Shown: one piece after another, positions 6,256 to 35,173 of the stretch | Position numbering within the stretch: the first letter of the stretch is position 1 | Layout: each line of letters begins with the position of its first letter | DNA from: an uncultured Planctomycetales bacterium | GTDB lineage: Bacteria; Omnitrophota; Gorgyraeia; Zapsychrales; GWA2-47-8 | Assembly (NCBI GenBank): GCA_964359575.1 | Contig: CAYHTV010000003.1 | Span: 1 to 45,171, forward strand | Length of the DNA: 45,171 bases | Reading direction: 5' to 3' | Notes under the pieces: generated by a model | The model's input: only the letters and a program-made list of their open reading frames with translations | Databases searched by the model: none | Told to the model about the DNA's origin: nothing | Position numbers and translations under genes: made by a program

Positions 6256-6358
6256 TATTGACCTTTGTAGAACCAAAAGAATTGAGGTAGTCAATATTGG
6301 CCTTTGTCTCCTCAATGATAAATCCAAATTTTTTTCTTTAGTTGTACAAAGGCCCATA
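6256..6358 (+). mobile_element. Element A, 103-bp MITE-like repeat (length includes both flanking TA)
   Basis: Imperfect terminal inverted repeats tattgacctttgtagaacc / agttgtacaaaggcccata; near-identical copies elsewhere in the window. Confidence 0.85.
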
Positions 6359-6376
6359 AGATGACAAGGAGTCAAA

Positions 6377-12800: not shown

Positions 12801-12810
12801 TTTATCCCGT

Positions 12811-12913
12811 TATTGACCTTTGTAGAACCAAAAGAATTGAGGTAGTCAATATTGGCCTTTGTCTCCTCAATGATAAATCCAAATTTTTTTCTTTAGTTGT
12901 ACAAAGGCCCATA
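12811..12913 (+). mobile_element. Element A copy
   Basis: Matches the 6256-6358 copy; TA at both ends; 10 nt after the trpF stop. Confidence 0.85.
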
Positions 12914-12987
12914 GAGAGCGCAGTTTTCTAACAGGATTTATAGCTTGGCTAAGCGCGTTATAGGCCATTAGCGTGAAGGAGGGACCT

Positions 12988-13407
12988 ATGCTGGAAATGA
13001 CTGTCGAAAATATCATGTGTGATCATCCCATTAAGGTGAAAGATAATATCCGGGTGGGAAGTGTCGCGCATTTGCTTTTGCGGCATCAGATCAATGGGAT
13101 TTTGGTCGTGCGGGAAGATGATGAAAATCAACTGGTTGGAATCTTAACGACGACGGATCTGCTGCGGCTGATTAGCGAGGCGCTCTCAAAGCGCCGGCAG
13201 AGGATCAATGCCCTGAAGCGAGTGGCCGAACTGAAGGTCGGGCAAGTCGCTACGCGAAAGGTTATTTCACTTTCTAAAAATGATACGATTATGAAGGCCC
13301 TGGCTCTGATGCATCGAAAAAATGTGCACACGATTCCAGTATATAGCAAGAAAAAACTTGTTGGGGTTATTGGAAAACACGATATTTTGAACATGGCGCT
13401 TATTTAA
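12988..13407 (+). CDS. CBS-domain pair protein
   Basis: Two CBS repeats (LVGILTTTDL, LVGVIGKHDI); ATG 12988 follows SD aaggagg. Confidence 0.85.
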   Translation: MLEMTVENIMCDHPIKVKDNIRVGSVAHLLLRHQINGILVVREDDENQLVGILTTTDLLRLISEALSKRRQRINALKRVAELKVGQVATRKVISLSKNDTIMKALALMHRKNVHTIPVYSKKKLVGVIGKHDILNMALI

Positions 13408-13444
13408 AATTGCCGTTTTAACATTTCTGTTAAATTTTTTTTCA

Positions 13445-13537
13445 CAGCATAGGAAAGTATAAAACTTTCCTAGCTGCTAAAAAATCCTCTTCTATGCAGC
13501 AAAGAAGTTGCGACGAACGAAGTGAGGAGTTTTCTTG
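13445..13537 (+). mobile_element. Element B, 93-bp structured repeat
   Basis: cagcataggaaagtataaaactttcctagctg...gaggagttttcttg; 3 substitutions relative to the 15082 and 26578 copies. Confidence 0.8.
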
Positions 13538-13541
13538 AGTT

Positions 13542-14027
13542 ATGCCGATGGGAAACATGAAAAATAATCCAGAAAAGCGTAAATATGCGCGGTATGGTTC
13601 TAAAATGCCGATCATCTGCCGGGTCATTTATGATTTTAAAACGCAGATCAAATATCAGATTGTCGTGGATGGCCAGGAAAGAATTTTATCCGAAAAATAC
13701 GACGGGGTTAGCAAAGATGTCAGTGTGGAGGGTTTTAGTTTTTTTTCATCGCAGCGGCTCAGTAAAGGAGATGTTATCCGCATTGAGGTGTATGTCCCTA
13801 CCCAAAAAAATCCGGTGCATCTGGATGGCGAGGTGCGCTGGTCGCATCCCATGGCGGGCTTTGGTATGAGGGACCAGTATGAAACCGGTGTGCATGTCCT
13901 TAAGGTTAACGGCAAGTTGGTCGTGGATACGGTTCGGTTTGATAAGGTGCGGGGCATGCATTGGAGTGAGGTGCTGGATGCTGTTTTAAAACACTTTCTC
14001 GATCAGGATAAAGAGGATAAAGGGTAA
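13542..14027 (+). CDS. PilZ-domain protein (c-di-GMP receptor); start may be 13557
   Basis: RKYAR (RxxxR) and DVSVEG (DxSxxG) motifs, GEVRW. Confidence 0.8.
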   Translation: MPMGNMKNNPEKRKYARYGSKMPIICRVIYDFKTQIKYQIVVDGQERILSEKYDGVSKDVSVEGFSFFSSQRLSKGDVIRIEVYVPTQKNPVHLDGEVRWSHPMAGFGMRDQYETGVHVLKVNGKLVVDTVRFDKVRGMHWSEVLDAVLKHFLDQDKEDKG

Positions 14028-14176
14028 GGTGAAAGTGTGAATAAGTTTTATCCCTCGCTTCATTAAATTTGCAATATCCAGATTCTATTTCAATACTAGA
14101 AAGGCGAGGGATAATACCGCGTTTTTCTAAATGTAATATTGCAGATTTTTTGAAACGCGGTATAGGAGGAATCATT

Positions 14177-14818
14177 ATGGAAAATCTGACACTGGTCATT
14201 GGCAATAAAAATTATTCTTCCTGGTCAATGCGGCCGTGGGTTTTGCTGAAACATTTTAAAATTCCTTTTGATGAAGTTTTCATTCCCTTAGGGATGCCGG
14301 AAAGCAAACAAAATATTCTAAAGCATTCTCCTTCGGGCAAAGTCCCGGTCATTAAACATGGCAGGCTTATGGTTTGGGAAAGCCTCGCGATTGCCGAATA
14401 TCTGGCGGAAATTTTTCCGAAGAAAAATTTGTGGCCGAAGGATAAACCAGCGAGGGCCGTGGCCCGGGCGGTGAGCTCAGAGATGCACGCGGGATTCATC
14501 CATCTGCGTAAGGCCTGCCCGATGAATGTCAGAGCCCATAAACCTCTGGCAGAATTAACCCCTGAGATGCAAAAGGATACGGCGCGTATCAGTGCCTTAT
14601 GGGGGGATTGCCGTAAGCGTTTTGGCAAAGGCGGGGACTTTTTATTCGGAAAATTTTCCATCGCAGATGCGATGTACGCGCCCGTGATTTGGCGGTTTAA
14701 CACTTATGGGATTTCGGTTTCAGGCGCTGCCAAAAAATATTTTGCAACCATGCTTTATCTGCCCGCCATGCAGGAATGGCAGAAGGCGGCGCAAGAAGAA
14801 CCGCAGGTCATGGATTAA
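14177..14818 (+). CDS. Glutathione S-transferase family protein
   Basis: GNKNYSSWSMRPW, SPSGKVP, WESLAIAEYL, FSIADAMYAP; ATG 14177 after SD aggagg. Confidence 0.92.
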   Translation: MENLTLVIGNKNYSSWSMRPWVLLKHFKIPFDEVFIPLGMPESKQNILKHSPSGKVPVIKHGRLMVWESLAIAEYLAEIFPKKNLWPKDKPARAVARAVSSEMHAGFIHLRKACPMNVRAHKPLAELTPEMQKDTARISALWGDCRKRFGKGGDFLFGKFSIADAMYAPVIWRFNTYGISVSGAAKKYFATMLYLPAMQEWQKAAQEEPQVMD

Positions 14819-14826
14819 TATTGAAA

Positions 14827-14907
14827 AAAACTTAAAATTCAAAACTCAAAAGTCAGAAGGGAATGAATATTTCAGTTTTTACTTTTGAGTTTTGCCCTTT
14901 AACTTTT
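14827..14907. repeat. Periodic AT-rich inverted repeat, family C
   Basis: aaaacttaaaattcaaaactcaaaagt / acttttgagttttgccctttaactttt; ends immediately before ATG 14908. Confidence 0.75.
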
Positions 14908-15846
14908 ATGTCTGCCCAAGAATATTTAGCCCGCATGAAAACGATCCTTTGCGAAGGGGGAAAGGCTGCCCTTGGACTCATTGACAATAGCCGGCCCACG
15001 CTTAAAAAGGACGGCTCCGTGGTGACGCTGGCGGATGAGAAAGTTTCTCAGCTGGCGCACACTATTTTGCAAGATTTTTTACAGCATAGGAAAGTATAAA
15101 ACTTTCCTAGCTGCTAAAAACTCCTCTCCTATGCAGCAAAGAAGTTACGACGAACGAAGTGAGGAGTTTTCTTGAAAACGTCGCAGCATATTCTTATCGA
15201 TGAGGAGGATCCTGCTGGACATCGATATTTGGATCAGGCGATTTTGGAAAAGGTTCCTTTTATTTGGACGATCGATCCGATTGACGGCACCCGCAATTAT
15301 GTGAATCGTATGCCCAATTTTGGCATTTCGGTTGGGCTTATGAGGGATTTAAGGCCTTGGGTTGGGGCGGTGTATTTTCCGGCGCTGAAGGAGTTATTTT
15401 TTTGTGATGGCGTGGAAGCGTACTTTGTGCAAAATGCTTTTACCTTCGATGAGCGGCTGACCAGAATCCGTCCCCTGGACCAGCGGATCACGAACCAATC
15501 GATTTTTTTGTGCATCGACAATTTTGCAAAAAAATTTCAATGGGATTACCAAGATTGTCATTTGATGACGCAGGCCTGCGCGGCCGTGGACTTGTGCTGG
15601 CCGACGATTGGACGCGGGTGCGGGGCCTTTTTTAAATCATCGCTGTGGGATTTTGTGGGGCCGTGGCCGATCGTCTTGGCGGCTGGTTTGAATTTTCGTT
15701 CCCTTGCGTCCGGTAAAATATTAGACCGTATCCAAGTGGATTTATTTTTGGAAGAGCACACGCCTTGGAAATTGCGCGAGCCGTATATTCTTTCGTCCGA
15801 GCGTAATTTTTCTATTCTTAAAAGTAAAATTCGGACTCTTTATTGA
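14908..15846 (+). pseudogene. Inositol monophosphatase-family gene interrupted in frame by element B (pieces 14908-15099 and 15172-15846)
   Basis: N part KKDGSVVTLAD; C part LIDEE, WTIDPIDGT, LWD; both in the same frame; removing 15082-15174 gives ...QDFL-KTSQHILIDEE... Confidence 0.8.
15082..15174 (+). mobile_element. Element B copy inside the IMPase gene
   Basis: Identical to the 26578-26670 copy. Confidence 0.85.
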
Positions 15847-15943
15847 CCTTTGTAGAACCAAAAGAATTGAAGTAGTCAATATTGGCCTTTGTCTCCTCAA
15901 TGATAAATTCAAATTTTTTTCTTTAGTTGTACAAAGGCCCATA
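15841..15943 (+). mobile_element. Element A copy inserted in the IMPase stop codon
   Basis: 2 substitutions relative to the 6256 copy; reconstructed empty site reads act ctt TAA. Confidence 0.85.
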
Positions 15944-16054
15944 AGTAGGATCGCTGGCTGGTTTGCCCCTTGACAGATCGTAAAATATCGATTACACATA
16001 TAGAGAATTTTTACAGCAGTTTGAAACCTTTATTTGAAGAAAGGATGGAGTCAC

Positions 16055-16624
16055 GTGAAAAGTAATCATTTTTCAAAAATTTCAAAAATTTTTTTGATTG
16101 TCGTCATTATGATCGCCTGTGACAGATTTGCTGGGGCTAATACTCCGTATCAGAACGCCATTTTGGAAATGCAGCTGCGGGATTTTACGATGTTTCACAA
16201 CGAGTTTCCTAAAGGAATGTGGGACAATAACGCAAATGCCAGGATGTCGGCTGCTGAATTTCGCCAGATGCAGCAGCTTGCACGACAATTGAGTCAGGAA
16301 AATCATAGCCTTCAACAGGCCTTAACCGAGCGGCAAGCGGATCAAGCCAGTATGCTCGATAGCATCAAAAAGGCAGAAGAAGAAAAGCAACAGCTGCAAG
16401 CCGCGCAGCAGAAAATTCAGGATGAATATTCGCAGATGGAATCATCCTTAAGCCAGCAGCTGGCGGAAAATAAACGGTTGCAGGATGAGCTTACCCAAAG
16501 CCAGGAGGGATTTAATCAAAAATTGCTGGATTTTTATAAGGAGGAAGAGATACGCTTAACTCAGCGGATTGAGGAAATTAGGAAAAAACAGGAAGAGTTA
16601 AATAGTGCATCGGGAAATTTGTAG
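16055..16624 (+). CDS. Exported coiled-coil hypothetical protein
   Basis: N-terminal hydrophobic segment, long Q/E/K heptad region; GTG start after ggag. Confidence 0.7.
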   Translation: MKSNHFSKISKIFLIVVIMIACDRFAGANTPYQNAILEMQLRDFTMFHNEFPKGMWDNNANARMSAAEFRQMQQLARQLSQENHSLQQALTERQADQASMLDSIKKAEEEKQQLQAAQQKIQDEYSQMESSLSQQLAENKRLQDELTQSQEGFNQKLLDFYKEEEIRLTQRIEEIRKKQEELNSASGNL

Positions 16625-16743
16625 ACGCTATTGCCCCAAAATTTTGAAACCTCCCAAATCCCCCAAAACCACAATAACAAAATTGTCAACGCGGGATTAT
16701 AATGATACAATGAAGCCACAATTGGATTGGTTAAAGGACGGTC

Positions 16744-17355
16744 ATGATGAATAAAAAATTTTTTATGTTTGGCATTGCGATTTTTACCGGATTCCTTATG
16801 GGTTGTTCCACAACGAAGGTGGAGCGTCTTAAAGTCGAAGAGGTCGTGGATCTCAGCGGGCGCTGGAATGATACGGATGCGCAGATGGTCTCAAGGGAGA
16901 TGATTGGGAATTGTTTGGTTGCCGCCTGGCTGGATAGTTTTGTCAAGCAAACCGGCCGGGAACCCGTGGTTATTGTGGGAACCATTGAGAATAATAGCAG
17001 CGAGCATATCAATTCCGCAGTTTTTATTAAAAGTTTGGAGCGGGACATGATCAATTCCGGGAAAGTAAAATTTGTCGCCTCCAAACCCGAGCGCCCCGAA
17101 GTCCGTGACGAGCGTAAAAGTCAGAACGAGGAAGGCTATAGCGATCCCGCAACAATCAAGCCTCCGCGTAAAGAGGTGGGTGCGGATTTTATGCTGCGGG
17201 GCAGTATTAATACGGTGACCGACAATGCCAGCGGAAAATATGTTATCCTTTATCAAGTAAACTTGGAGCTGGTGGATTTGACCACGAATGAAGTTAAGTG
17301 GCTTGAGCAAACCGAGCTTAAAAAACTCGTCAAGAAATCCAAATATTCTCTTTAA
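16744..17355 (+). CDS. LpoB-like (PBP activator/CsgG-like) lipoprotein
   Basis: Lipobox LMGC, DLSGRWNDTD, ENNSSEHI, GADFMLRGSI, YQVNLELVD. Confidence 0.75.
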   Translation: MMNKKFFMFGIAIFTGFLMGCSTTKVERLKVEEVVDLSGRWNDTDAQMVSREMIGNCLVAAWLDSFVKQTGREPVVIVGTIENNSSEHINSAVFIKSLERDMINSGKVKFVASKPERPEVRDERKSQNEEGYSDPATIKPPRKEVGADFMLRGSINTVTDNASGKYVILYQVNLELVDLTTNEVKWLEQTELKKLVKKSKYSL

Positions 17356-17387
17356 AAGTTAATCCTATCCGATCATATCTCACCTTC

Positions 17388-18761
17388 ATGGGAAAAAGAA
17401 TATTTCTTCTGACCTGCCTTATTCTTCTTCCGGCCTGTGTCTTCTCATCTTCGCAGTCTCCAATATCCGCTAAAAAAGATATCTATTTCAACCAGGCCCA
17501 GGTGAATGCCTTAGTGGCAGCGGGCCGTTTTGAACAAGCCAGCCAATTATTTTATACCCACCAGTCCATGTATGGCTCTAAGAACGAATTGCTCTATTTA
17601 TTAGATCGCGCCTATGTTTTGCAGCTGGCTAAAAAATATGATGAGAGCAGCCGTTATTTTGAACAGGCAAAAAATACAATTGATCAGCTTTACACGAAAT
17701 CGGTCAGCAATATGGCTTCCACTTGGATGGTCAATGATAATCTTGCCCCTTATCGCGCCGAGGCCTTTGAGCAGATTCTCGTCAATGTGCTGCAGGGTTT
17801 AAATTATTTGGCCCGCGAAAATATTTTAGAGGCGCTGGTTGAGGCACGGGATGGAGATCAGAAGCTTTCTCTGCTTTGCGATTTATACTGCCATGAAAAA
17901 AATATTTACAGCGAGGACGGTTTTGCGCGCTTCATTTTCGGATTGATGTATGAAAGCAAAAATAACCGGCAGGATATTAATGACGCGGTTATTTCTTATA
18001 AAAAAGCCCTGCGGGCTTATGAGAATGATTTTTACAGAACGGCATCTCGGGGTGCGCCGCAAATCCTTAAAGAAAATTTATTAGCGGCAAGCCAGTATTT
18101 GGGGCAGGCTGACTTTCAAAATTATCAAAAAAATTTTTGGGGCGCTCCGTTTTCGCCGCTTCAGGAAAAAATGCGAAAAGCGGAAATTTACATCATTCAT
18201 TTCAATGGGCTTTCACCCGTTAAACATGCCACGACTATTGTTGTGCCATTATTATCGGGAATGACGCAGATGGCCTTCCCGCAGTATGCCCCGCGGTATT
18301 ATGAAATTCAATCGTCGGAATTTATAGCCGTTAAATCCGACGGCCAAAAATTTTCCGCCATCACCGAGGTTGGAGCGGATTTGGAAAAAATTGCCCAGCA
18401 GAGCTTGGATGGGCGCAAGGCTTGGTTATACGCCAAGGCGGCTCTGCGGCCTTTAGGGAAGTATACGGCTGAGTCGCACGTGGCGCAAAGGGTTGAGAAA
18501 CGACACGGTGAGTTGGCTGGCTGGGCGATCAAAGGTGTCAGCAGTTTGTATAATCTTTACTCTGAACAGGCCGATGTGCGCAGTTGGCAGACTTTGCCGG
18601 CACAGATCCGCATTGCCCGGGTGATTGTTGAGCCAGGGCAATACCACATCCGATTGACGTGTTTCAATTCCGGAAGACAAATGTTAGAGGAAGTGGATTT
18701 AGGCGGTGTCGTTGTGAATACTGGTCAAAAAAAATTTATTTTAGTACGAACGGTAAAATAG
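17388..18761 (+). CDS. COG3014-like TPR-containing lipoprotein
   Basis: Lipobox LPAC, ALVEAR, ADVRSWQTLP motif; typical neighbour of LpoB-like genes. Confidence 0.7.
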   Translation: MGKRIFLLTCLILLPACVFSSSQSPISAKKDIYFNQAQVNALVAAGRFEQASQLFYTHQSMYGSKNELLYLLDRAYVLQLAKKYDESSRYFEQAKNTIDQLYTKSVSNMASTWMVNDNLAPYRAEAFEQILVNVLQGLNYLARENILEALVEARDGDQKLSLLCDLYCHEKNIYSEDGFARFIFGLMYESKNNRQDINDAVISYKKALRAYENDFYRTASRGAPQILKENLLAASQYLGQADFQNYQKNFWGAPFSPLQEKMRKAEIYIIHFNGLSPVKHATTIVVPLLSGMTQMAFPQYAPRYYEIQSSEFIAVKSDGQKFSAITEVGADLEKIAQQSLDGRKAWLYAKAALRPLGKYTAESHVAQRVEKRHGELAGWAIKGVSSLYNLYSEQADVRSWQTLPAQIRIARVIVEPGQYHIRLTCFNSGRQMLEEVDLGGVVVNTGQKKFILVRTVK

Positions 18762-18797
18762 CAGTGGTGATATACTTAACTTAAAGATTTTTTATTT

Positions 18798-18890
18798 CAG
18801 CATAGGAAAGTATAAAACTTTCCTAGCTGCTAAAAACTCCTCTCCTGTGCAGCAAAGAAGTTACGACGAACGAAGTGAGGAGTTTTCTTG
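18798..18890 (+). mobile_element. Element B copy
   Basis: 1 substitution (cctgtgc for cctatgc) relative to consensus. Confidence 0.85.
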
Positions 18891-18917
18891 AGCCAACCCA
18901 ACCATCAAAGGAGGCCT

Positions 18918-19232
18918 ATGTCATCACCCAACTATGGCTTGAAAGTTGCGGAAGATTTTCAAGAATATTTGAAAACCGGCGATGAGAATTTAATTCAACA
19001 ATATTCGGTGAAAGAGTTAAAAGTCGCTATCAGCCGCTTGTCGCCCTATTATGATAACAATAAGCTTTGGTACCGCACCTTGGAGCAGCGGATTGAGGAA
19101 CTTTCCAGCATTGAGCAACGAAAGAAGAGAAGTCACAATCGCTGGAAGGAGGTTTTGAAGGAGAAGTGGCTGGATAAAATTGTTTCTTTTCTGCTGGGAG
19201 TTTTGGGCGGCTTGGCTTTACAGACTTTTTAA
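18918..19232 (+). CDS. Hypothetical protein with C-terminal transmembrane anchor
   Basis: SD aaggagg before ATG 18918; C-terminal IVSFLLGVLGGLAL. Confidence 0.65.
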   Translation: MSSPNYGLKVAEDFQEYLKTGDENLIQQYSVKELKVAISRLSPYYDNNKLWYRTLEQRIEELSSIEQRKKRSHNRWKEVLKEKWLDKIVSFLLGVLGGLALQTF

Positions 19233-19341
19233 TGTTATTGATCCGTTTCTCAAGAACTCCTCGTTAATATTCCTGTATTTTGCTTGTTGTCGCCTCTGTG
19301 CTAAGTTAAAATATAGCCAATTCGTAATATTCCAAAAAAAT

Positions 19342-21399
19342 ATGAAATTATCACGGATTTTTATTTATATTCTTTTCTGCTCACTCTCGGTATTTCCTGA
19401 TACGTCCCAGGCGAGTTTGGAAAGCGTTAGTTTTATCCAAGAAGTCAATTCCGGACTAGCGAAACCCGTTGATGTGGCTGTTTCCCATTCTGGCACCGAA
19501 GTGTATGTGATTGATGAAGAATCCTCCCGGGTGCTTGTTTTTGAATCCGATGGCACCCTGCGCTTAAGTTTTGGCGAGCGGGGCTTGCAGTCAGGCCAGC
19601 TGAATAAACCACGCGCGCTGGCGGTCTCGCCAGCTGATAAAATTATCGTGGCTGATACGGGCAACAATCGTTTACAAATTTTTAATAAAGCCGGCGAATT
19701 TATTTCTCAATTTGGAAGTTTGGGATCTCTGCCTGGGCAGTTGAATGCTCCTTTGGGTGTAGCGGTGGACCAGTTTGGTTTTATTTTTGTGGCTGATACC
19801 GGCAACCGGCGCGTTGAAATTTTCAGCCCCAACGGCGTATTTTTGGGAATGTTTGATACGGAATTTCATCCAGTGGACATTGGTATTGACGCACAGCGTA
19901 ATCTTTATGTGCTGCTTCCAGAGGCAGGAAAAATTGTTAAATATTCTTCCGCGGGAATAAAACTGCAGGAGATTTCGGGCGCCGTCCATAAGCACAATTA
20001 TTTAAGCCGGGCGAACGGTTTAGCGGTTGACAGCCGCGGGGATATTTATATCACCGAAGGCGCACAGCAGAGCATTAAAAAAATCGATAGCGACAGCACG
20101 CTTCTTTTATCATTCGGATCGGCGGGGAGCGGACGGGGACAATTTGACGGTGCTGCCGGCATTACTGCGGATATACAGGGACAGATTTTTATTGCCGATA
20201 TGAAAAACAGACGTGTTCAAATTTTCAAAATCACCGGAAGTAAAAAAAAATTTATCCCCGCGGCGGTTAACTCACCGCCAGTCGTGGATTTTGATTCGGT
20301 CATTGAAACCGAGGAGTCGCTCGTTGATTTGTTCTCGATCCCCGGGCGAGGGTTGTTTGCACTTTCGGATAGAGGGGCGCAGGTTTTGTTATACGGGCAT
20401 ACGCACAATATTTTTGGTAAAGAAGGAACAAATGCCGGTGAATTTAAAAAACCGATGTCGCTGAGCGCTGCTCTCAATGGCAAGGTTTTTGTCGCTGATA
20501 CCGGTAATCACCGGGTGCAAATTTTTAATTTGGATGGCGCAATGCTGTACGAATTTGGGAAAAGCGGAAGCAAGGCGGGTCAATTCAACTTTCCGCAGGG
20601 CGTGGCCGTCAATAGCAAAGGAAAAATTTTTGTGGCAGACACGCACAATAATCGTATTCAAGTTTTTAATCATGATGGGATTTATCTTGCGGCATTCGGC
20701 GGCCGCAGTGGAGGCGCGACAGCCAGTGGTCCGCCAAGCGAATTGCGATCCCCCAAAGTTTTAGCGGTTGATTCGCATGATCAAATTTTTGTCCTTGAAA
20801 CGGAGAGTAATCAAATTAAGATTTTCAGTGAAACGGGAAATTTTTTGGCAGCATTCGGCGAAAAGGGCAGTGGCCCGGGACAGTTTGATCGGCCGGTGGA
20901 TATCATCTTGGATGAGAATGACAATCTTTACGTGGCGGATGCCGGGAACAACCGGGTTCAGATTTTTAGTCCAAAACGAAATTTTATTCTCGCGTTTGGC
21001 TCTTTTGGCAAGGAAATTGGGGCATTTGAGAATCTCTCGGCAGTCGCAGCCTCGGAAGGGCGGATTTTTGTTGCGGATTATAAAGCGAAGCAGGTTGAGG
21101 TCTTCCGGTATTTTCCGGATGGATTGATAAAACCGTTGCGGATTTACGCTACCAAAACTGCGTACCCCTCAGATGACCCAGAGGTAAATGATGTGGCGAA
21201 ATACACATTAGCCCAAGAGGCAGCCGCCGGCGCAGCAAGGAAGGAATTGACCGCAGGTTTTGGATTTCGGGAAGAATATCTCAAACAATTTATCAAAATC
21301 GAATCGGTCGAAATCCTAAACGACGGACAGGTTAAAGTGACGGTCAGCGCACCTAAAAATATTCCACCGGAAAAAAAGCCGATAAAGAAGAGAAAGTAA
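19342..21399 (+). CDS. Secreted NHL-repeat (double beta-propeller) protein
   Basis: Many GQF/L-x-x-P-x-GVAV...IFVADTGNxRVQIF repeats; signal peptide from ATG 19342. Confidence 0.9.
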   Translation: MKLSRIFIYILFCSLSVFPDTSQASLESVSFIQEVNSGLAKPVDVAVSHSGTEVYVIDEESSRVLVFESDGTLRLSFGERGLQSGQLNKPRALAVSPADKIIVADTGNNRLQIFNKAGEFISQFGSLGSLPGQLNAPLGVAVDQFGFIFVADTGNRRVEIFSPNGVFLGMFDTEFHPVDIGIDAQRNLYVLLPEAGKIVKYSSAGIKLQEISGAVHKHNYLSRANGLAVDSRGDIYITEGAQQSIKKIDSDSTLLLSFGSAGSGRGQFDGAAGITADIQGQIFIADMKNRRVQIFKITGSKKKFIPAAVNSPPVVDFDSVIETEESLVDLFSIPGRGLFALSDRGAQVLLYGHTHNIFGKEGTNAGEFKKPMSLSAALNGKVFVADTGNHRVQIFNLDGAMLYEFGKSGSKAGQFNFPQGVAVNSKGKIFVADTHNNRIQVFNHDGIYLAAFGGRSGGATASGPPSELRSPKVLAVDSHDQIFVLETESNQIKIFSETGNFLAAFGEKGSGPGQFDRPVDIILDENDNLYVADAGNNRVQIFSPKRNFILAFGSFGKEIGAFENLSAVAASEGRIFVADYKAKQVEVFRYFPDGLIKPLRIYATKTAYPSDDPEVNDVAKYTLAQEAAAGAARKELTAGFGFREEYLKQFIKIESVEILNDGQVKVTVSAPKNIPPEKKPIKKRK

Positions 21400-22149
21400 A
21401 TGCGGGCAAAGTTTTTACGAAAAGTTTTGGGATTTTTATTTTTTCTGCCTGCGGGGATGGGGCAGGTCGCCGTGGCCCAGGATGCCGAAACGATCCCGGC
21501 CATGAATACGCTCGTGCCCGCGTTTGAATCATCTGCGCCAAAACGCGCAGCGGAATTACGGCCGTATAAACGGTATTTTGTTGAGTCGGGAATTGTAGAA
21601 TATATTATCAGCGGGACCCAAAGCGGTATCGAAATTGCTTATTTTGACCGTTGGGGCAGACGCGAGGCCAGATATACAAAGTCCGAAGTCGCCGGGTTGG
21701 GATTCTCGAATACTTTGACTATTATTGACGGCGAATGGATTTACACGATTCATTTGGACAAAAAGATCGGCAGTAAAATCAAAAATGAATTACTCATGAA
21801 AGCCCTTGAGGAATCCAGCCCTGAAGATAAGACTCCGCTGGGTGAGAAAATGATGAGTCTAGTTGGCGGAGAAAAAATTGATAACGAGCGGATTGGTGAG
21901 AAAATGTGTGATATTTGGGAAATCAAGCATCAAGGGCAAAAATTTTGGATATGGAATGGGATCCCGCTTAAAAGCGAGCAAAAGACCGCCTTCGTTGATA
22001 CGACGTTTGCGGCGGTGAGCCTGCAGGCGGGAGCCCTGATCTCCGAAGAAAAATTTAAAATCCCGGAAGATATTAATTTTATTGAAGGCAATATTAATGA
22101 TATGTTGTTGAGTTTATTGACCTTTGTAGAACCGAAAGAATTGAGGTAG
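21400..22149 (+). CDS. Exported hypothetical protein (C-terminus supplied by element A)
   Basis: Signal peptide ...AVAQ; beta-rich body; last 10 residues LTFVEPKELR encoded by element A. Confidence 0.75.
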   Translation: MRAKFLRKVLGFLFFLPAGMGQVAVAQDAETIPAMNTLVPAFESSAPKRAAELRPYKRYFVESGIVEYIISGTQSGIEIAYFDRWGRREARYTKSEVAGLGFSNTLTIIDGEWIYTIHLDKKIGSKIKNELLMKALEESSPEDKTPLGEKMMSLVGGEKIDNERIGEKMCDIWEIKHQGQKFWIWNGIPLKSEQKTAFVDTTFAAVSLQAGALISEEKFKIPEDINFIEGNINDMLLSLLTFVEPKELR

Positions 22150-22217
22150 TCAATATTGGCCTTTGTCTCCTCAATGATAAATTCAAATTTTTTTCTTTAG
22201 TTGTACAAAGGCCCATA
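22115..22217 (+). mobile_element. Element A copy overlapping a CDS 3' end
   Basis: 2 substitutions relative to the 6256 copy; TA at both ends. Confidence 0.85.
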
Positions 22218-22236
22218 AAGAAATGGCCGGCTTTCC

Positions 22237-23142
22237 ATGATAGATATCCTTAAAAAAATTAGCCTAACTATTCTTTTGATTTATGCGCTTTTTTTGCCGA
22301 TCCCAGCTTTTGCCTTGATGGAGGGTGAGCGGATTGCTAGTCTTTTTGAGGAACAGGCAGATTCTGTGGTTTTGATCGCTGCCGCACAAAAAAATGATCA
22401 AGAGAACAAATTGGGCAGTGGGTTTGTAGTGAGTGAAGATGGTTTGATTGTTACCAACGCGCATCTGGTAAGTCAGGTGGATAAAATTATTGTTAAGCTG
22501 CGCAATAACCGGGCGTATCGCCATGTGCGTGTCGTTGCTGTTGATGAGGAAAAGGACATTGCCGTATTAAAAATCAACGCGCAGGGATTAAAGGCCGTCA
22601 AAGTAGGCAATAGCAAACATGTTGAGATTGGGCAGAGGGTGGTAACGATCGGCAACCCCTTAGGGTTTGAAGGAACGGTTTCCGATGGGCTCATCAGTTC
22701 GCTGAGGGAAGGCAACAAGGGGTTTAGAATTTTTCAAACGAGTGTTCCATTATCCAATGGCAGCAGCGGCGGGCCTTTGTTTGATCTTAAGGGAAAAGTA
22801 ATTGGGATTACTACTGCCTCGCATTTAAAGGGACAGAATTTGAATTTTGCCGTCCCCATCAATTATGTTAAGCCGCTTTTGCGGCGCGTGCGGCGGCAGA
22901 CGGATCATGCTGTTGACTTTCCGAAACGTTCCTATAAAAGGTTGACGAAAAAATTTTTTCAGCCAGTGATGCCTTTGGCATTAAAGGAAAAAATTGAACC
23001 AGAATTTTATACGGTTCAGCCGGGAGACACTTTATATGGCATCGCGCAAAGATTTGATAAAAGTATGGAAGAAATACGCGTCCGCAACCAACTTACTACA
23101 TCCACCATCAGGGTGGGACAACGATTACGAATGAGTGAATAG
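22237..23142 (+). CDS. Trypsin-like (HtrA-type) serine protease with C-terminal LysM domain
   Basis: GSGF, TNAH, DIAVL, GSSGGPL; LysM YTVQPGDTLYGIA...IRVGQRL. Confidence 0.9.
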   Translation: MIDILKKISLTILLIYALFLPIPAFALMEGERIASLFEEQADSVVLIAAAQKNDQENKLGSGFVVSEDGLIVTNAHLVSQVDKIIVKLRNNRAYRHVRVVAVDEEKDIAVLKINAQGLKAVKVGNSKHVEIGQRVVTIGNPLGFEGTVSDGLISSLREGNKGFRIFQTSVPLSNGSSGGPLFDLKGKVIGITTASHLKGQNLNFAVPINYVKPLLRRVRRQTDHAVDFPKRSYKRLTKKFFQPVMPLALKEKIEPEFYTVQPGDTLYGIAQRFDKSMEEIRVRNQLTTSTIRVGQRLRMSE

Positions 23143-23815
23143 CATGTCGAAAATTGTTTTTGATATCGAAACGGTGGGGCAGGATTTTGGTGTTTTGGAT
23201 AAATCTTCCCAAGAATATTTCCTGAAATTTGCCGAGACTGAGCAGGAAATCGAAGAGGCGAAGAACAGCCTTAATTTTTACCCTTTAACCGCTCAAGTGG
23301 TGGCTATCGGCATGCTGGAAGTGGAAAGTGAGCAAGGCATTGTGTATTTTCAAAATGGCTCACCGCAGAAAGAAAAATTTATTGAAGGGAGTATCACCTA
23401 TATTTCCGGCAATGAAAAAGAGATACTCAGTCATTTTTGGGCCCAGTTGAGCCGTTATGAACAATTTGTCACCTTTAACGGCCGGGTTTTTGATTGCCCG
23501 TTTTTATTGATCCGTTCAGCCATCCAAAAAATTCGAGCGACGAAAAATTTAGTCCCGTATCGCTATGATTATAAGCTGCACATTGATTTAGCCGATCAGT
23601 TAAGTTTTTATGATGCCATGCGCCGTAAGTTTGGCCTGCATATGTGGTGTCAGGCCTTTGGGATTGAAAGCCCCAAACAGGAAGGGATCACGGGACTGCA
23701 AGTTAAGGACTTTTTCAAACAAGGGAAATATCATGATATCGCCCGCTATTGTATGCGGGACATCAAGGCCACCAAAGAGCTGTATTCGCATTGGGAAAAG
23801 TATATTAAGCTTTAG
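23135..23815 (+). CDS. PolB-like/RNase H-fold 3'-5' exonuclease (DEDDy)
   Basis: VFDIET, TFNGRVFDCP, YCMRD. Confidence 0.85.
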   Translation: MNSMSKIVFDIETVGQDFGVLDKSSQEYFLKFAETEQEIEEAKNSLNFYPLTAQVVAIGMLEVESEQGIVYFQNGSPQKEKFIEGSITYISGNEKEILSHFWAQLSRYEQFVTFNGRVFDCPFLLIRSAIQKIRATKNLVPYRYDYKLHIDLADQLSFYDAMRRKFGLHMWCQAFGIESPKQEGITGLQVKDFFKQGKYHDIARYCMRDIKATKELYSHWEKYIKL

Positions 23816-23897
23816 ACGGGCAATTTTTATATTACAACATGAGTGCAAGTAATTGATATATAATATGTTATGAGTATTTATGCATTTTGCCACACCC

Positions 23898-23926
23898 TTG
23901 CCTAGCAGCCTCGCATGTGATATAGT
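23898..23926 (+). promoter_or_regulatory. Sigma70-type promoter for the riboswitch leader
   Basis: TTGCCT-17 nt-TATAGT with extended TG; predicted start just before the aptamer. Confidence 0.65.
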
Positions 23927-23932
23927 TGAAAT

Positions 23933-24083
23933 AAGCCGATAAAGGTAAACCCGGGGAAACCCGGGGACACAAAGCCAACAGGCCTACGTTGCCGCAAAAC
24001 CGGGAAGGCTCACAACCCCGTGGGGTGGGCATAAAAGACAAACGGTGGGAATAGGGGCAATAGGGTGGCTGGGTTGCCGAAGT
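23933..24083 (+). ncRNA. Cyclic di-GMP-I (GEMM) riboswitch with enlarged P3
   Basis: aaaggtaaa-cccgg-ggaaac-ccggg-gacacaaagcc...ggcct...ggtggctgggttgccgaa follows the GEMM-I pattern with a GAAA tetraloop; the G20-equivalent position is G. Confidence 0.85.
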
Positions 24084-24123
24084 GCGATGGGGGGATACAT
24101 CCCTGTCTTTATCGGCTTTTTTA
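24076..24123 (+). terminator. Probable riboswitch expression platform/intrinsic terminator
   Basis: gccga...gggatacatccc...tcggc followed by a T-tract. Confidence 0.55.
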
Positions 24124-24278
24124 TTCTTCCGTAATTCTTGCCATTTCAGCATTTTCTTAAGAAAAATTCCAAAAAATTCCAAAAACACATTCGGTGAAAT
24201 TATTTGAGTATGTTATAATGAGCCCTAATATTTGCTTTTTCTTGACTATCGAATTTTGAATTTAAAGGGAACATTGAG

Positions 24279-24581
24279 ATGAATGAGAAATTTATGCGCG
24301 TTTATAAAAAATTGGACATCAATGATGTTAGAAATCACCTCATGATTTATGGAGATTTATCTGCCAGCTGCGCGAAGTGCAAGACGCTGGATATAAAATT
24401 TGATACTGCGTTGTGCCCCAGCTGTCAGACAGAATTCAAATACCTCGCCTTTCGCAGTATAAAAAATCATATCCTTAAGGTACAAAGGATGATAGAAGAG
24501 CGACCGCAGATTATTTTAGTTGATTACGAAGACTATTCCCGTCTTATCGGTGTCTTGAAGGCAGAAGAGTTTTTAAAATAA
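24279..24581 (+). CDS. Hypothetical zinc-ribbon protein
   Basis: CAKC...CPSC; TGtTATAAT at 24211-24219 upstream. Confidence 0.7.
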   Translation: MNEKFMRVYKKLDINDVRNHLMIYGDLSASCAKCKTLDIKFDTALCPSCQTEFKYLAFRSIKNHILKVQRMIEERPQIILVDYEDYSRLIGVLKAEEFLK

Positions 24582-24603
24582 CTAAATTTAATAAGAATTT
24601 AAA

Positions 24604-25746
24604 ATGATTCATAAGTCCCGACTCATTTCGCTTACGCAAAAAGTCATCCGATTTAATTCCGTTAATCCTCCGGGGAATGAGCTCGCCCTTTCTAAATTTA
24701 TTGAAAAAGATATGCGGTCTTTGCGATTGGAGGTTAAAACCTATTCATTCGCAAAAAGCCGTCCTAATGTTGTTGCTGCGCTGAAAGGAAATCTGCCGCG
24801 TAGGCAAGCCGCCCAAGCGGCCATTTTAGTTACGCCGCATTTTGATACTGTCCCTATTGGCACGGGGTGGAAATTCGATCCGCTAGGCGGACAAATTTAT
24901 AACGGCCGGATTTATGGACGCGGGGCAAGCGATGATAAAGGAAATCTGGCGTGCTGCCTGGAAGTGATGCGCAGTCTCGTTGAGGATCGTGTCCGTTTGC
25001 GCAAGGATATTATTATGGCGGCGACCGTTGATGAAGAAACCGGAAGCCATTGCGGGATCATCCCGCTTTTGGACAAAAAGATTTTGCGGCCACAGGCGGC
25101 TTTGATCATGGATTCCGATGAGTTTGATACGATTATTGCGCAAAAGGGTTTGCTGCATTTACGAATTCAGATTTTCGGAAAAAAGGCGCACGGCGCTTAT
25201 AATTGGCGTGGGGTCAATTCGATTGAGCTCGCTGCTAAAGTTATTGAAAAATTGAAAGCGCATCAATTTGCATTCAAAAGTCATCCTTTTTTACATGCGC
25301 CAACGAAGAATATTGGCACCGTGCGTGGGGGCGATAAGGTCAATATGGTGGCGGATTTTTGCGAATTTTCGTTGGACACGCGATTTTTGCCAGGCATGCA
25401 GGATAAAAAGGTGCTGGAAGAAATTACCGGTATTGTCGCCAGTGTGGCTAAAAAATTTAAAATCGAAATTGATGATCTGCAGCAACCATATGAAATCGAT
25501 CGCCGCCACCAGCTTGTAAAAACTTATGTGGATACGGCCAGGCGGATGGGGTTTCGGGCTCGTTTTAAGGGGAGTGAGGGGGCTACCGTGATCACATTTT
25601 TTAAAAAATATGGAATTCCGGCGTTTGCTACCGGGTATGGCTCTTGCGGTACCGCGCATACCACTGACGAATATGTGAAGATAAATGATCTTTATAATGG
25701 GTCACGGCTTTTGGAGCAATTTCTAAAGAGTTACGATAATCTATGA
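24604..25746 (+). CDS. M20 metallopeptidase (ArgE/DapE family)
   Basis: HFDTVP, YGRGASDDKG, VDEETG, AHTTDEY. Confidence 0.92.
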   Translation: MIHKSRLISLTQKVIRFNSVNPPGNELALSKFIEKDMRSLRLEVKTYSFAKSRPNVVAALKGNLPRRQAAQAAILVTPHFDTVPIGTGWKFDPLGGQIYNGRIYGRGASDDKGNLACCLEVMRSLVEDRVRLRKDIIMAATVDEETGSHCGIIPLLDKKILRPQAALIMDSDEFDTIIAQKGLLHLRIQIFGKKAHGAYNWRGVNSIELAAKVIEKLKAHQFAFKSHPFLHAPTKNIGTVRGGDKVNMVADFCEFSLDTRFLPGMQDKKVLEEITGIVASVAKKFKIEIDDLQQPYEIDRRHQLVKTYVDTARRMGFRARFKGSEGATVITFFKKYGIPAFATGYGSCGTAHTTDEYVKINDLYNGSRLLEQFLKSYDNL

Positions 25747-26453
25747 AGCCGATCATCTGCTTAAAATGGGTGGTCATCCTTGCAGTTTTTTTCTTTGAGG
25801 CAGGATCGGCGCAGGCCCAAAATTCTCCTTTTCCCTTTCCGGCAGATGAGATCATCACGTATGCCATTAAGAAATTTGGGGTGAAGGTGGGTGAGGCAAG
25901 CCTTAGCTTTAGGGGCTTAGAAAAAATAGAGGCGCGGGATTTGTACCGTATTACTTTTGTTGCCAATGCCCCAAATTTCTTCGATCAGGAAGAAATTTTC
26001 GTGGATCCGGTGACATTGTATCCCTTTATGGTGAAGCGGAATTTGAATATTTTTGGAAAAAGGGAAAAGATTACGGAAAAATATGATTTGAACACGGGAG
26101 AAATTAAAATTGTTAAGGATGCGGGTGGAAAAACTTCCGAACAAATCCTGAAGGGAAAAACAAAGGTTGATAATATTTATTGTTTTCTTTACCGTTTTCG
26201 CATCCAGGGAGATGTCCAGAAGGGTTTGACCTTTACCATGCAATTGCCAACGAAGAATGTGCGGATTGCCGTCAAGGATAAAACGCGTTTAAAAATTACG
26301 GATCGCACCTACGAGGCGATTTACTTAGAGAGCGACCCTAAAGAATACAAGATATGGTTCGATACAAGCCCGCGGATGATTCCGCTGCGTATTGACGGGG
26401 CCATGGGTATCGTCAGCACTGCCCTCGTCCTCACGGGATATAAAAAGCCATAA
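25743..26453 (+). CDS. DUF3108-like exported protein
   Basis: Signal peptide; EIITY...GVKVGEA start; IWFDTSPRMIPLRI near the end. Confidence 0.6.
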   Translation: MKPIICLKWVVILAVFFFEAGSAQAQNSPFPFPADEIITYAIKKFGVKVGEASLSFRGLEKIEARDLYRITFVANAPNFFDQEEIFVDPVTLYPFMVKRNLNIFGKREKITEKYDLNTGEIKIVKDAGGKTSEQILKGKTKVDNIYCFLYRFRIQGDVQKGLTFTMQLPTKNVRIAVKDKTRLKITDRTYEAIYLESDPKEYKIWFDTSPRMIPLRIDGAMGIVSTALVLTGYKKP

Positions 26454-26487
26454 TTTTTGACAGACCAAATGAAGTGTGATTTAATGT

Positions 26488-26572
26488 AAATTTTGAAATC
26501 TTAAATACTAAATTCGAAACAATTTCGAAATTAGAAATTCTAATTTGTCTTGTATTTAGTATTCAGAATTTT
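26488..26572. repeat. Periodic ttcgaaa-type hairpin repeat, family D
   Basis: aatactaaat / atttagtatt arms; shares cgaaacaatttcgaaatt with the reverse complement of 35130-35173. Confidence 0.65.
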
Positions 26573-26577
26573 TTTGA

Positions 26578-26670
26578 CAGCATAGGAAAGTATAAAACTT
26601 TCCTAGCTGCTAAAAACTCCTCTCCTATGCAGCAAAGAAGTTACGACGAACGAAGTGAGGAGTTTTCTTG
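26578..26670 (+). mobile_element. Element B copy upstream of trpB
   Basis: Identical to the 15082-15174 copy. Confidence 0.85.
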
Positions 26671-35010: not shown

Positions 35011-35025
35011 GCTTTGCATAGATAC

Positions 35026-35128
35026 TATTGACCTTTGTAGAGCCAAAAGAATTGAAGTAGTCAATATTGGCCTTTGTCTCCTCAATGATAAATTCAAATT
35101 TTTTTCTTTAGTTGTACAAAGGCCCATA
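35026..35128 (+). mobile_element. Element A copy
   Basis: 3 substitutions relative to the 6256 copy; TA at both ends. Confidence 0.85.
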
Positions 35129-35129
35129 A

Positions 35130-35173
35130 GAGTTCGAATTTCGAAATTGTTTCGTATTTCGTGATTAAAATTT
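35130..35173. repeat. Half copy of family D repeat before recJ
   Basis: aatttcgaaattgtttcg is the reverse complement of a segment in 26488-26572. Confidence 0.6.

Follow-up and report, generated by a model that had tools for sequence, protein, structure and literature searches.

A 93-bp two-hairpin repeat of an Omnitrophota genome is a recently amplified, non-autonomous mobile element inserted 3' of a T-rich motif

What is a 93-bp sequence that recurs four times on the same strand of one contig, folds into two hairpins, and stands before unrelated genes: a mobile element, a regulatory leader, or both? The question arose from a window of 45,171 nt, i.e., the whole stretch of DNA analysed here, which is contig C3 (CAYHTV010000003.1) of an uncultured groundwater bacterium (assembly GCA_964359575.1, hereafter G000; 1.97 Mb, 152 contigs, 91% complete, 44.6% G+C). 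The initial annotation of this window had described the repeat as a non-autonomous structured mobile element that may act as a switch in 5'-untranslated regions (5'-UTRs). We report that the element is mobile, recently amplified, non-autonomous, and non-coding. The reading we prefer, with confidence evenly balanced, is that it moves in single-stranded form through an HUH/Y1-type (IS200/IS605-like) reaction; both the single-strand mechanism and the enzyme class are deduced from its anatomy and behavior.

The four copies have the length, strand, and zero to three substitutions originally ascribed to them. Taking the copy at 15082 as reference, the identities in positional order are 97, 100, 99, and 100%; copies 2 and 4 are the same sequence, and copies 1 and 3 deviate from it by three and one substitutions. 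A 45-nt probe (up to 3 mismatches) matches the whole window exactly four times, against zero matches expected from 100 shuffles. The genes 3' of copies 1–4 encode a PilZ protein, a broken inositol monophosphatase, an unknown protein, and TrpB. The features are listed below, with P1 and P2 denoting the two hairpins, arm c one side of an alternative pairing, and G001 the only other genome of the genus in our sample.

13438..13444, + strand: target motif TTTTTCA (TTTTT-N-A), abutting copy 1
13445..13537, + strand: copy 1, 93 bp, 3 substitutions, between a CBS-domain gene (12973-13407) and a PilZ-domain gene (13542-14027)
14908..15099, + strand: N-terminal fragment of an inositol-monophosphatase-family gene, ending at TAA (15097-15099) in the hairpin 1 loop
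15075..15081, + strand: target motif TTTTTTA, abutting copy 2 and part of the interrupted coding sequence
15082..15174, + strand: copy 2, the reference, 93 bp, missing from the orthologous gene of the congener G001; P1 at 15082-15113, P2 at 15117-15126 with 15161-15170, alternative arm c at 15124-15134
15172..15846, + strand: C-terminal fragment of the inositol-monophosphatase gene, covering Pfam Inositol_P profile positions 62-236 of 271
18798..18890, + strand: copy 3, 93 bp, 1 substitution (A>G in arm c, G-U compatible)
26571..26577, + strand: target motif TTTTTGA, abutting copy 4
26578..26670, + strand: copy 4, 93 bp, identical in sequence to copy 2, 11 nt 5' of trpB (ATG 26682)

Hairpin 1 (P1), CAGC-A-TAGGAAAGT / ACTTTCCTA-GCTG, begins at the first base of the element. 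Stem 2 (P2), AAAACTCCTC / GAGGAGTTTT, encloses a loop of 34 nt and is laid out as an A-run and stem followed by a stem and T-run; the 3' end of the element is fixed as TTTTCTTG. These are the two hairpins drawn initially, and they coincide with the minimum-energy fold of the element (−28.7 kcal/mol and z −3.8 for top-strand RNA, z −4.5 for top-strand DNA); the bottom strand folds as DNA as well (z −3.9). Terminal inverted repeats are absent: the end CAGCATAGG... has no inverted counterpart in the other, ...GTTTTCTTG, and the two flanks differ.

Mobility is evident at copy 2. G001 is syntenic with the window at 72–78% DNA identity, and at this site its inositol-monophosphatase gene is a single frame of 288 codons (...VSRLAQEILQDLLKTPEHILIDEEDP...; ...ILQDLLKTPEH...). 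The orthologue in the window (14908-15846) is split into pieces of 63 and 224 codons: the sequence ...VSQLAHTILQDFL runs into the element, meets a TAA stop in the P1 loop, and resumes as (TTG)KTSQHILIDEEDP.... Relative to the empty site, copy 2 amounts to exactly 93 extra bp between ...QDFL and KTSQH..., with zero duplicated bases. The search for an empty site in a relative that the initial annotation proposed has thus been made with a positive outcome, and the absence of a flanking duplication is borne out both by this site and by comparison of the flanks.

For copy 4, the corresponding intergenic region of G001 lacks the element and is shorter by about 155 nt, and the site of copy 3 coincides with a G001 contig break. 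Where copy 1 sits, G000 carries an additional CBS-domain gene together with the element. The CBS gene (12973-13407) and copy 1 sit between two genes that are neighbors in G001, where the orthologue of the CBS gene lies on another contig (C87); hence, this gene has been rearranged or relocated. A second clean empty site was considered at the Memo-AMMECR1 gene (C1:55592) and rejected, as the insert lies in a length-variable linker and the alignment has no exact 31-residue gap. Population data comprise 12 DNA runs from 5 studies that contain the stretch, with no RNA run among those listed. Logan contigs from four runs are interrupted at the repeats, and none bridges exactly one missing element; in two studies, contigs pass from the phosphatase gene into the element at 15102, and the site is thus filled in both.

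Genome-wide, the 29-nt head of the element (CAGCATAGGAAAGTATAAAACTTTCCTAG) has 59 copies and the 25-nt tail (ACGAACGAAGTGAGGAGTTTTCTTG) has 64, at up to 3 mismatches. Heads and tails form 36 pairs, each with both ends on one contig, 26 of them 93 bp long and the rest 167–433 bp; the 23 heads and 28 tails left without a partner lie almost exclusively at contig ends. Full-length matches of at least 96% identity number 25 (16 at 100%, 3 at 99%, 5 at 97%, and 1 at 96%), those at 97% constituting a second subfamily. The spread of the element is a recent burst. The congener G001 has only one copy, located elsewhere, and G000 also retains old copies on contigs C75 (89%) and C24 (82%), of a type seen in other families of the order.

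The insertions share a left flank. In 58 heads, the preceding seven nucleotides read TTTTT-N-A, with each T position conserved in 51–57 and the A at position −1 in 51 of them, while position −2 is free (T 30, C 13, G 11, A 4). The T-tract first noted before every window copy is therefore a T-run within a longer genome-wide motif; copy 3 has the variant TTTATTT, common to three other genome copies. The right flank has merely a weak A/T preference at +1 and no conserved sequence. We assign TTTTT-N-A to the target rather than to the element, since the free base adjoins identical copies and the motif forms host codons at copy 2. A T-run followed by A also lies 5' of relatives in other genomes and metagenomes. 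A promoter reading of the junction was discarded: TTGACA arises only when N is G (11/58) and, read by eye, is separated from TATAAA by 11 nt, less than a sigma-70 spacer requires.

The secondary structure is conserved beyond the burst. A covariance model was built from 13 copies and used to search 151 genomes of the order, with at most 26 candidates scored per genome. The family was found in 15 of the 151, distributed patchily over seven families; apart from G000, it is multi-copy in G071 (at least 26), G067 (17), G124 (15), G007 (11), G082 (9), G006 (8), and G097 (7). The covariation analysis suggested earlier was carried out on 32 sequences from these 15 genomes, aligned by fitting to the covariance model, which favors the structure, and P1, P2, and the alternative pairing all show compensatory changes. 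Of the 23 pairs in P1 and P2, 13 vary on both sides, and pairing holds in 93.7% of cells, against 44–57% with a slid partner; none of 500 shuffles reaches the observed values. The base of P1 varies as CAGC/GCTG, CAGT/ACTG, and CCG/CGG, and P2 as CTCC/GGAG, TTCC/GGAA, TCGC/GCGA, and CGCC/GGCG. In the helices, G-T combinations outnumber A-C (18 vs. 8), a modest sign that the top strand may be the one that folds.

The alternative pairing GCATAGG/CCTATGC of the initial annotation is present and covaries in relatives. It joins arm a (bases 3–13) to arm c (bases 43–53) and overlaps P2 by 3 bp. The base bulged from P1 pairs with arm c (columns 13-83) as G-C in 10 sequences, A-U in 9, C-G in 2, and U-A in 2. 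Double-sided changes in a:c number 23 cells (0/500 shuffles), yet they fall in only 3 of 11 pairs (115/500 shuffles). One subfamily (G082, G112, G124, G079) has lost arm b, which leaves a:c as the sole option; short relatives of 68–77 nt (G085, G067) are without arm c.

The element is confined to one class of Candidatus Omnitrophota in the genomes sampled. With up to one mismatch, the 23-nt top of P1 occurs in 8 of 401 genomes across the phylum, namely G000, two of the same order, and five from other orders of the class, and in none of the sampled genomes of other classes. In metagenomes, 92 stretches carry an exact P1 top, and 80 of these were examined. Most loci read T-run and A, then TGGT[GA]-P1 top-[C]ACCA, then CTGAAA-stem...stem-TTTCTTG; P1 has a covarying base, the P2 sequences are quite different, and there is often an inner GC-rich hairpin. 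In 130-nt views, these elements mostly measure about 60–190 nt, with 13 whose tail lies beyond the view unsized. A tag [A/G]TAGG lies inside the P1 stem, 4 nt from its end; it reads ATAGG in G000, G001, and G006 and GTAGG in G007, G012, G097, and the two old G000 copies. An invariant hairpin top over freely covarying stems looks like a putative protein-recognition site. On metagenome contigs L173 and L214, the P1 top is found alone in the loop of a different hairpin (CCCAAAAT[AT]AAA ... TTT[AT]ATTTTGGGG), on L214 adjoining an apparent tRNA gene end; the hairpin top may travel independently.

Does the element serve the genes that it precedes? Approximately 7,400 TTTTT-N-A sites are present in the genome, about 6,600 of them inside open reading frames (ORFs), and most copies are intergenic; genic insertions have evidently been purged. 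One of the six frames of the element is open, 93 bp equal 31 codons, and three copies are read through in frame, in one ORF of at least 5,902 codons and two others of 532 and 633 aa; the Memo-AMMECR1 gene, with its length-variable linker, is among the three. At copy 2, the open frame of the C-terminal piece restarts at the last three bases of the element, TTG, 5 nt past GAGGAG, and it is just possible that GAGGAG-N5-TTG lets translation of this piece restart. The stop codon, the possible restart by a Shine-Dalgarno (SD)-like sequence and TTG, and the 31 extra codons in host genes are by-products of insertion, not its function. Where an SD and ATG follow the element, its apparent starts (GTG at −16, TTG at −3) are artifacts of ORF extension.

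Orientation relative to genes was tabulated with crude ORF calls, on which the tail counts rest. For 61 tails with a callable downstream ORF, 47 are co-oriented with it and 14 opposite, at distances from overlapping up to 614 nt. About 40 of some 55 copies with a callable upstream ORF run in the same direction as that ORF, often 8–20 nt past its stop. The 36 paired elements include 20 co-directional with both neighbors, 4 opposed to both, 3 between divergent genes, and 2 between convergent genes; the remainder lack a callable neighbor on at least one side.

A structured RNA leader in which P1 alternates with the pairing of arms a and c, and so regulates the downstream gene, would account for several of these features. 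As first remarked, three window copies end shortly before a likely start (4, 27, and 11 nt from the ATGs at 13542, 18918, and 26682); the fourth (15082) is inside a gene instead. The excess of co-oriented downstream ORFs, the covariation of two mutually exclusive pairings with four pair types at columns 13-83, the predominance of G-U over A-C, and the GAGGAG of P2 at 5 nt before TTG would all fit. Nevertheless, a mobile 5'-UTR switch must be considered very improbable. The downstream genes are unrelated, their distances vary widely, and almost a quarter of the tails (14/61) face an opposite ORF, while some copies are opposed to both neighbors, lie between convergent genes, or sit inside ORFs, three of them read through in frame and one splitting its gene. 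GAGGAG is exchanged for other stem sequences in relatives, the short relatives have no arm c, and a:c, sharing merely 3 bp with P2, would barely open it. Near-identical copies together with an empty site indicate transposition rather than conservation in place. No Rfam family reaches its gathering score on the element, and at a permissive threshold only chance matches to miRNA hairpins appear (E ≥ 0.31); a curated cis-regulatory RNA or riboswitch was discarded on this ground and for want of a fixed position before one gene family.

The orientation of the elements follows replication, in the pattern known for IS200/IS605, provided that the G-rich strand is the leading strand. The contigs of G000 have a strong GC skew of about ±0.1 each, with which 85% of the ORFs are aligned. 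The sign of the skew is retained in minority-strand genes (+0.035) and in intergenic DNA (+0.091); hence, part of the skew is not a coding-strand effect. On informative contigs (at least 8 kb, |skew| at least 0.04), 35 of 38 tails and 34 of 38 heads point with the skew. With pairs and unpaired ends pooled, the skew is followed in 45 of 49 cases and the direction of the flanking genes in 41 of 49; where genes and skew disagree, all four elements follow the skew, on contigs that are only weakly skewed (0.041–0.043). Supply of targets was rejected as the source of the bias, with 289 sense and 326 antisense intergenic sites. Members of IS200/IS605 are described as inserting with the active strand in the lagging-strand template (PMC5027513).

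From these observations we propose a single-strand pathway. The minimal unit of 93 bp comprises P1 at base one, P2, and the fixed 3' end TTTTCTTG. Its top strand would fold into P1 and P2, a 'peel-and-paste' reaction of the HUH/Y1 type would move the single-stranded element, and integration would take place in one orientation immediately 3' of TTTTT-N-A with nothing duplicated. Mobility, target motif, lack of duplication, conserved structure, orientation bias, and the recent burst are direct observations; the strand bias and the anatomy are compatible with a single-strand HUH-type substrate, as initially suggested. Among known systems, the element is most like a single-strand transposon derivative of the IS200/IS605 type, and its cognate transposase was sought and not found.

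Several points weigh against this reading. Firstly, no cognate transposase was found. G000 has two Y1_Tnp genes, both of RAYT size (221 and 225 aa; C79:6708-7373 and C13:4249-4926), and neither is flanked by the element: that on C13 lies between AACCATCCTACAC...GTGTAGGATGGTT and that on C79 among GGGGACAGCGACC palindromes. No P1 core was found near any of 27 Y1_Tnp loci in the flanks fetched from G067, G079, G097, G071, and G124, and the TnpA genes of IS200 size in G071 have different end hairpins. At the 80 metagenome loci, the ORFs within 3 kb of the element contain neither a recurrent family of transposases nor any Y1-like protein; they cluster into syntenic housekeeping families only, none resembling the two RAYTs. 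C13-type orthologues occur in 6 of 15 element-bearing and 12 of 136 element-free genomes, a weak association confounded by kinship. Secondly, P1 starts at the very first base, which, unlike in IS608, leaves a guide sequence without a linker, and the two hairpins are dissimilar to each other. Thirdly, the orientation bias is not fully separable from gene co-orientation, because 85% of genes follow the skew, and leading-strand identity of the G-rich strand is an assumption for this phylum. Finally, the assembly is incomplete (91%, 152 contigs), with many contigs ending within long forms of the element. Given these repeat-induced breaks, a coding copy may be unassembled; all unpaired heads and tails in G000 lead into non-coding hairpin modules at contig ends, with no coding copy among them. 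A 560-nt stretch between two opposed copies in G124 contains no convincing ORF.

The mobile-element part of the initial annotation is supported. A link to a TnpA(Y1)/RAYT, IS110, or reverse transcriptase gene, which it proposed to look for, did not emerge from the enzymes surveyed in G000, the Y1 loci of five relatives, or the ORFs of the metagenome loci. The absence of a linked Y1 gene would be explained if the machinery were not of the HUH type, i.e., an IS110-type (bridge-RNA) recombinase, a homing-type nuclease with repair, or reverse transcription primed at the T-run. IS110-type recombinases also leave no inverted repeats or long duplications. The dissimilarity of P1 and P2 and the position of P1 at base 1, unlike the ends of IS608, would be in keeping with this, and the complementary strand of the element ends in a short A-run (T-N-AAAAA); a GIY-YIG gene within another repeat family of G000 demonstrates that nuclease-borne repeats occur in this genome. 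We nonetheless regard such machinery as unlikely. There are no TnpB-type and no RVT_1 matches in G000, and the only IS110-like sequence is a decayed fragment with in-frame stops (C71:4717-5016), far from any copy. IS110-type enzymes use targets with conserved sequence to the left and right of the crossover, unlike the element, where conservation is limited to the left flank. The A-run is just 5 nt long and accompanied by a variable base, and reverse transcription primed at the T-run would keep the head and lose the tail, whereas the shortened copies inspected have lost 5' or internal sequence and still possess the 3' tail (one consists of the head and the last 13 nt). The GIY-YIG nuclease (96 aa, C87:5609-5830) was rejected as mobilizer, since it sits in a repeat of the CGCAATGACA type and not in the element.

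A further alternative is a RAYT-like Y1 protein acting in trans on a REP/BIME-like repeat that the host tolerates and that is useful between genes, as a terminator or for protection of mRNA 3' ends by P2 and its U-run. RAYT-like genes are widespread (107 of 151 genomes of the order), two of RAYT size being those of G000, and REP, REPIN, and BIME elements are reported to go with RAYT (TnpA-REP) transposases (PMC3333891, PMC3733652). The likeness extends to the mostly intergenic location of hairpin repeats, mosaic long forms reminiscent of BIMEs, and possibly the [A/G]TAGG near the 5' foot of P1 (GTAG in G007, G012, and G097), REP hairpins having a conserved GTAG or CGTC tag at the foot; the A-run, stem, and T-run of P2 resemble a two-way terminator, in line with the many co-directional copies shortly past a stop. 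On balance, we think this rather unlikely. Each RAYT gene is flanked by its own, different palindrome, and the element is an oriented two-hairpin unit of 93 bp with a defined target motif rather than a palindrome of 20–40 bp or an inverted doublet; the copies, in tables read by eye, are single head-to-tail units plus one tandem pair (C147), with no inverted doublets among the listed positions. The P2 loop is 34 nt, and an efficient terminator would end the host ORFs of the copies inside genes, one of them at least 5,902 codons long. Absence from 136 of 151 relatives argues against a conserved host function.

The single-strand HUH/Y1 reading has its nearest parallel in PATEs, which are described as non-autonomous derivatives of IS200/IS605 insertion sequences (PMC7290912, PMC3119063). 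Like the element, they lack terminal inverted repeats, duplicate no target sequence, and insert in one orientation 3' of a short fixed motif; both also have hairpins at or close to their two ends, follow replication in their orientation, and occur as short, gene-less, dispersed copies. Differences are also clear. No IS200/IS605 parent with the ends of the element was found, although incomplete assemblies leave room for one; the left hairpin is at base 1 and the hairpins are unrelated in sequence; and the element has a conserved third, competing pairing, as well as long forms with nested extra hairpins. Its target is 7 nt long (TTTTT-N-A), whereas IS608 and ISDra2 have targets of 4–5 nt. A classical MITE, derived from a DDE transposon, was rejected for lack of terminal inverted repeats and target-site duplication.

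Two other types of repeats are comparable in part. Rickettsia palindromic elements are hairpin-forming repeats that survive in frame within protein-coding genes, as the element does with its 31 codons in three long ORFs; in contrast, most copies of the element are intergenic, its target motif and orientation bias are defined, and the sequences are unrelated. BOX elements of Streptococcus pneumoniae are modular (boxA-boxB(n)-boxC) and share with the element a constant head and tail with a variable number of internal modules, but the modules of the element are hairpin pairs at three fixed points, bounded by repeated trinucleotides, and again there is no sequence relation. Plasmid and phage collections yielded no match to the element, and no known insertion-sequence end matched, as judged on these collections and the inspected Y1 loci. 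A literature search revealed no publication, among those covered, connecting Omnitrophota with repetitive extragenic palindromic or MITE-type repeats. As a kind, the element is not new, as it behaves like IS200/IS605-derived or REP-type repeats.

Beyond the short form, the only one that the initial annotation saw, the long forms (167–433 bp) retain head and tail and have additional hairpin pairs nested within them; the nesting points are fixed and number three, following CCTAG (in the 3' arm of P1), GCAG, and ACG. Each nested insert terminates in the trinucleotide found before it (TAG, CAG, or ACG). The module loops have a common CCTCTAAA...TTTAGG motif while the stems differ, and some modules have themselves been invaded by a third repeat, of the CGCAATGACA type. 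Such mosaicism explains why many contigs end in the element. One long form (C1:66736-66905) has at the first nesting point a 6-nt remnant, CCTAG-TACTAG-CTG, which looks like an excision footprint of a nested module flanked by TA or CTAG. At C147:52-95, a tail TTTTCTTG is directly joined to a head CAGC, and the 3' end of the element can apparently serve as a target-like site. A more far-reaching version of events, which we consider quite unlikely, is that the element belongs to a class of single-strand hairpin transposons whose mobilizer is an enzyme beyond the known Y1 families or an unlinked single-copy host enzyme, that P1 (a:b) and a:c form a switch of the transposition intermediate, and that the nesting points are a landing pad for small elements.

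Omnitrophota are uncultured bacteria with small genomes. In this one of 2 Mb, a single repeat family has inserted about 60 times, caused dozens of assembly breaks, disrupted one enzyme gene, and lengthened at least three proteins, including a giant one, by loops of 31 residues. Recognizing the element averts the annotation of false starts (GTG at −16, TTG at −3), falsely split or fused genes, and false regulatory RNAs. With its 7-nt target, invariant hairpin top, and fixed 3' end, it is a well-defined substrate with which to identify the mobilizer of hairpin DNA in this phylum, and single-strand transposases with defined targets are of interest for genome engineering.

Several other features were observed in the window and the genome. 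Relatives of the TrpB downstream of copy 4 (67–79% identity) are from metagenome-assembled genomes of Candidatus Omnitrophota or from those filed as uncultured Planctomycetes-type bacteria. The only Rfam match of the window at gathering score is a c-di-GMP-I riboswitch (23934-24081, 63.8 bits) located 5' of an ORF at 24279-24581. The palindromic repeat of the CGCAATGACA type occupies positions 91-240 of the window and has 138 arm matches genome-wide, including the copy at C87:5300-6200 that encloses the GIY-YIG gene. Another repeat, of about 105 bp (TATTGACCTTTGTAGAAC ... GTTGTACAAAGGCCCATA), has imperfect inverted ends and about 100 genome matches per tile. It is found at 6260-6365, 12810-12913, 15840-15945, 22115-22218, 35025-35130, from 45110 to the end, and at 1-50; it is more abundant than the 93-bp element and terminates the contig on both sides.

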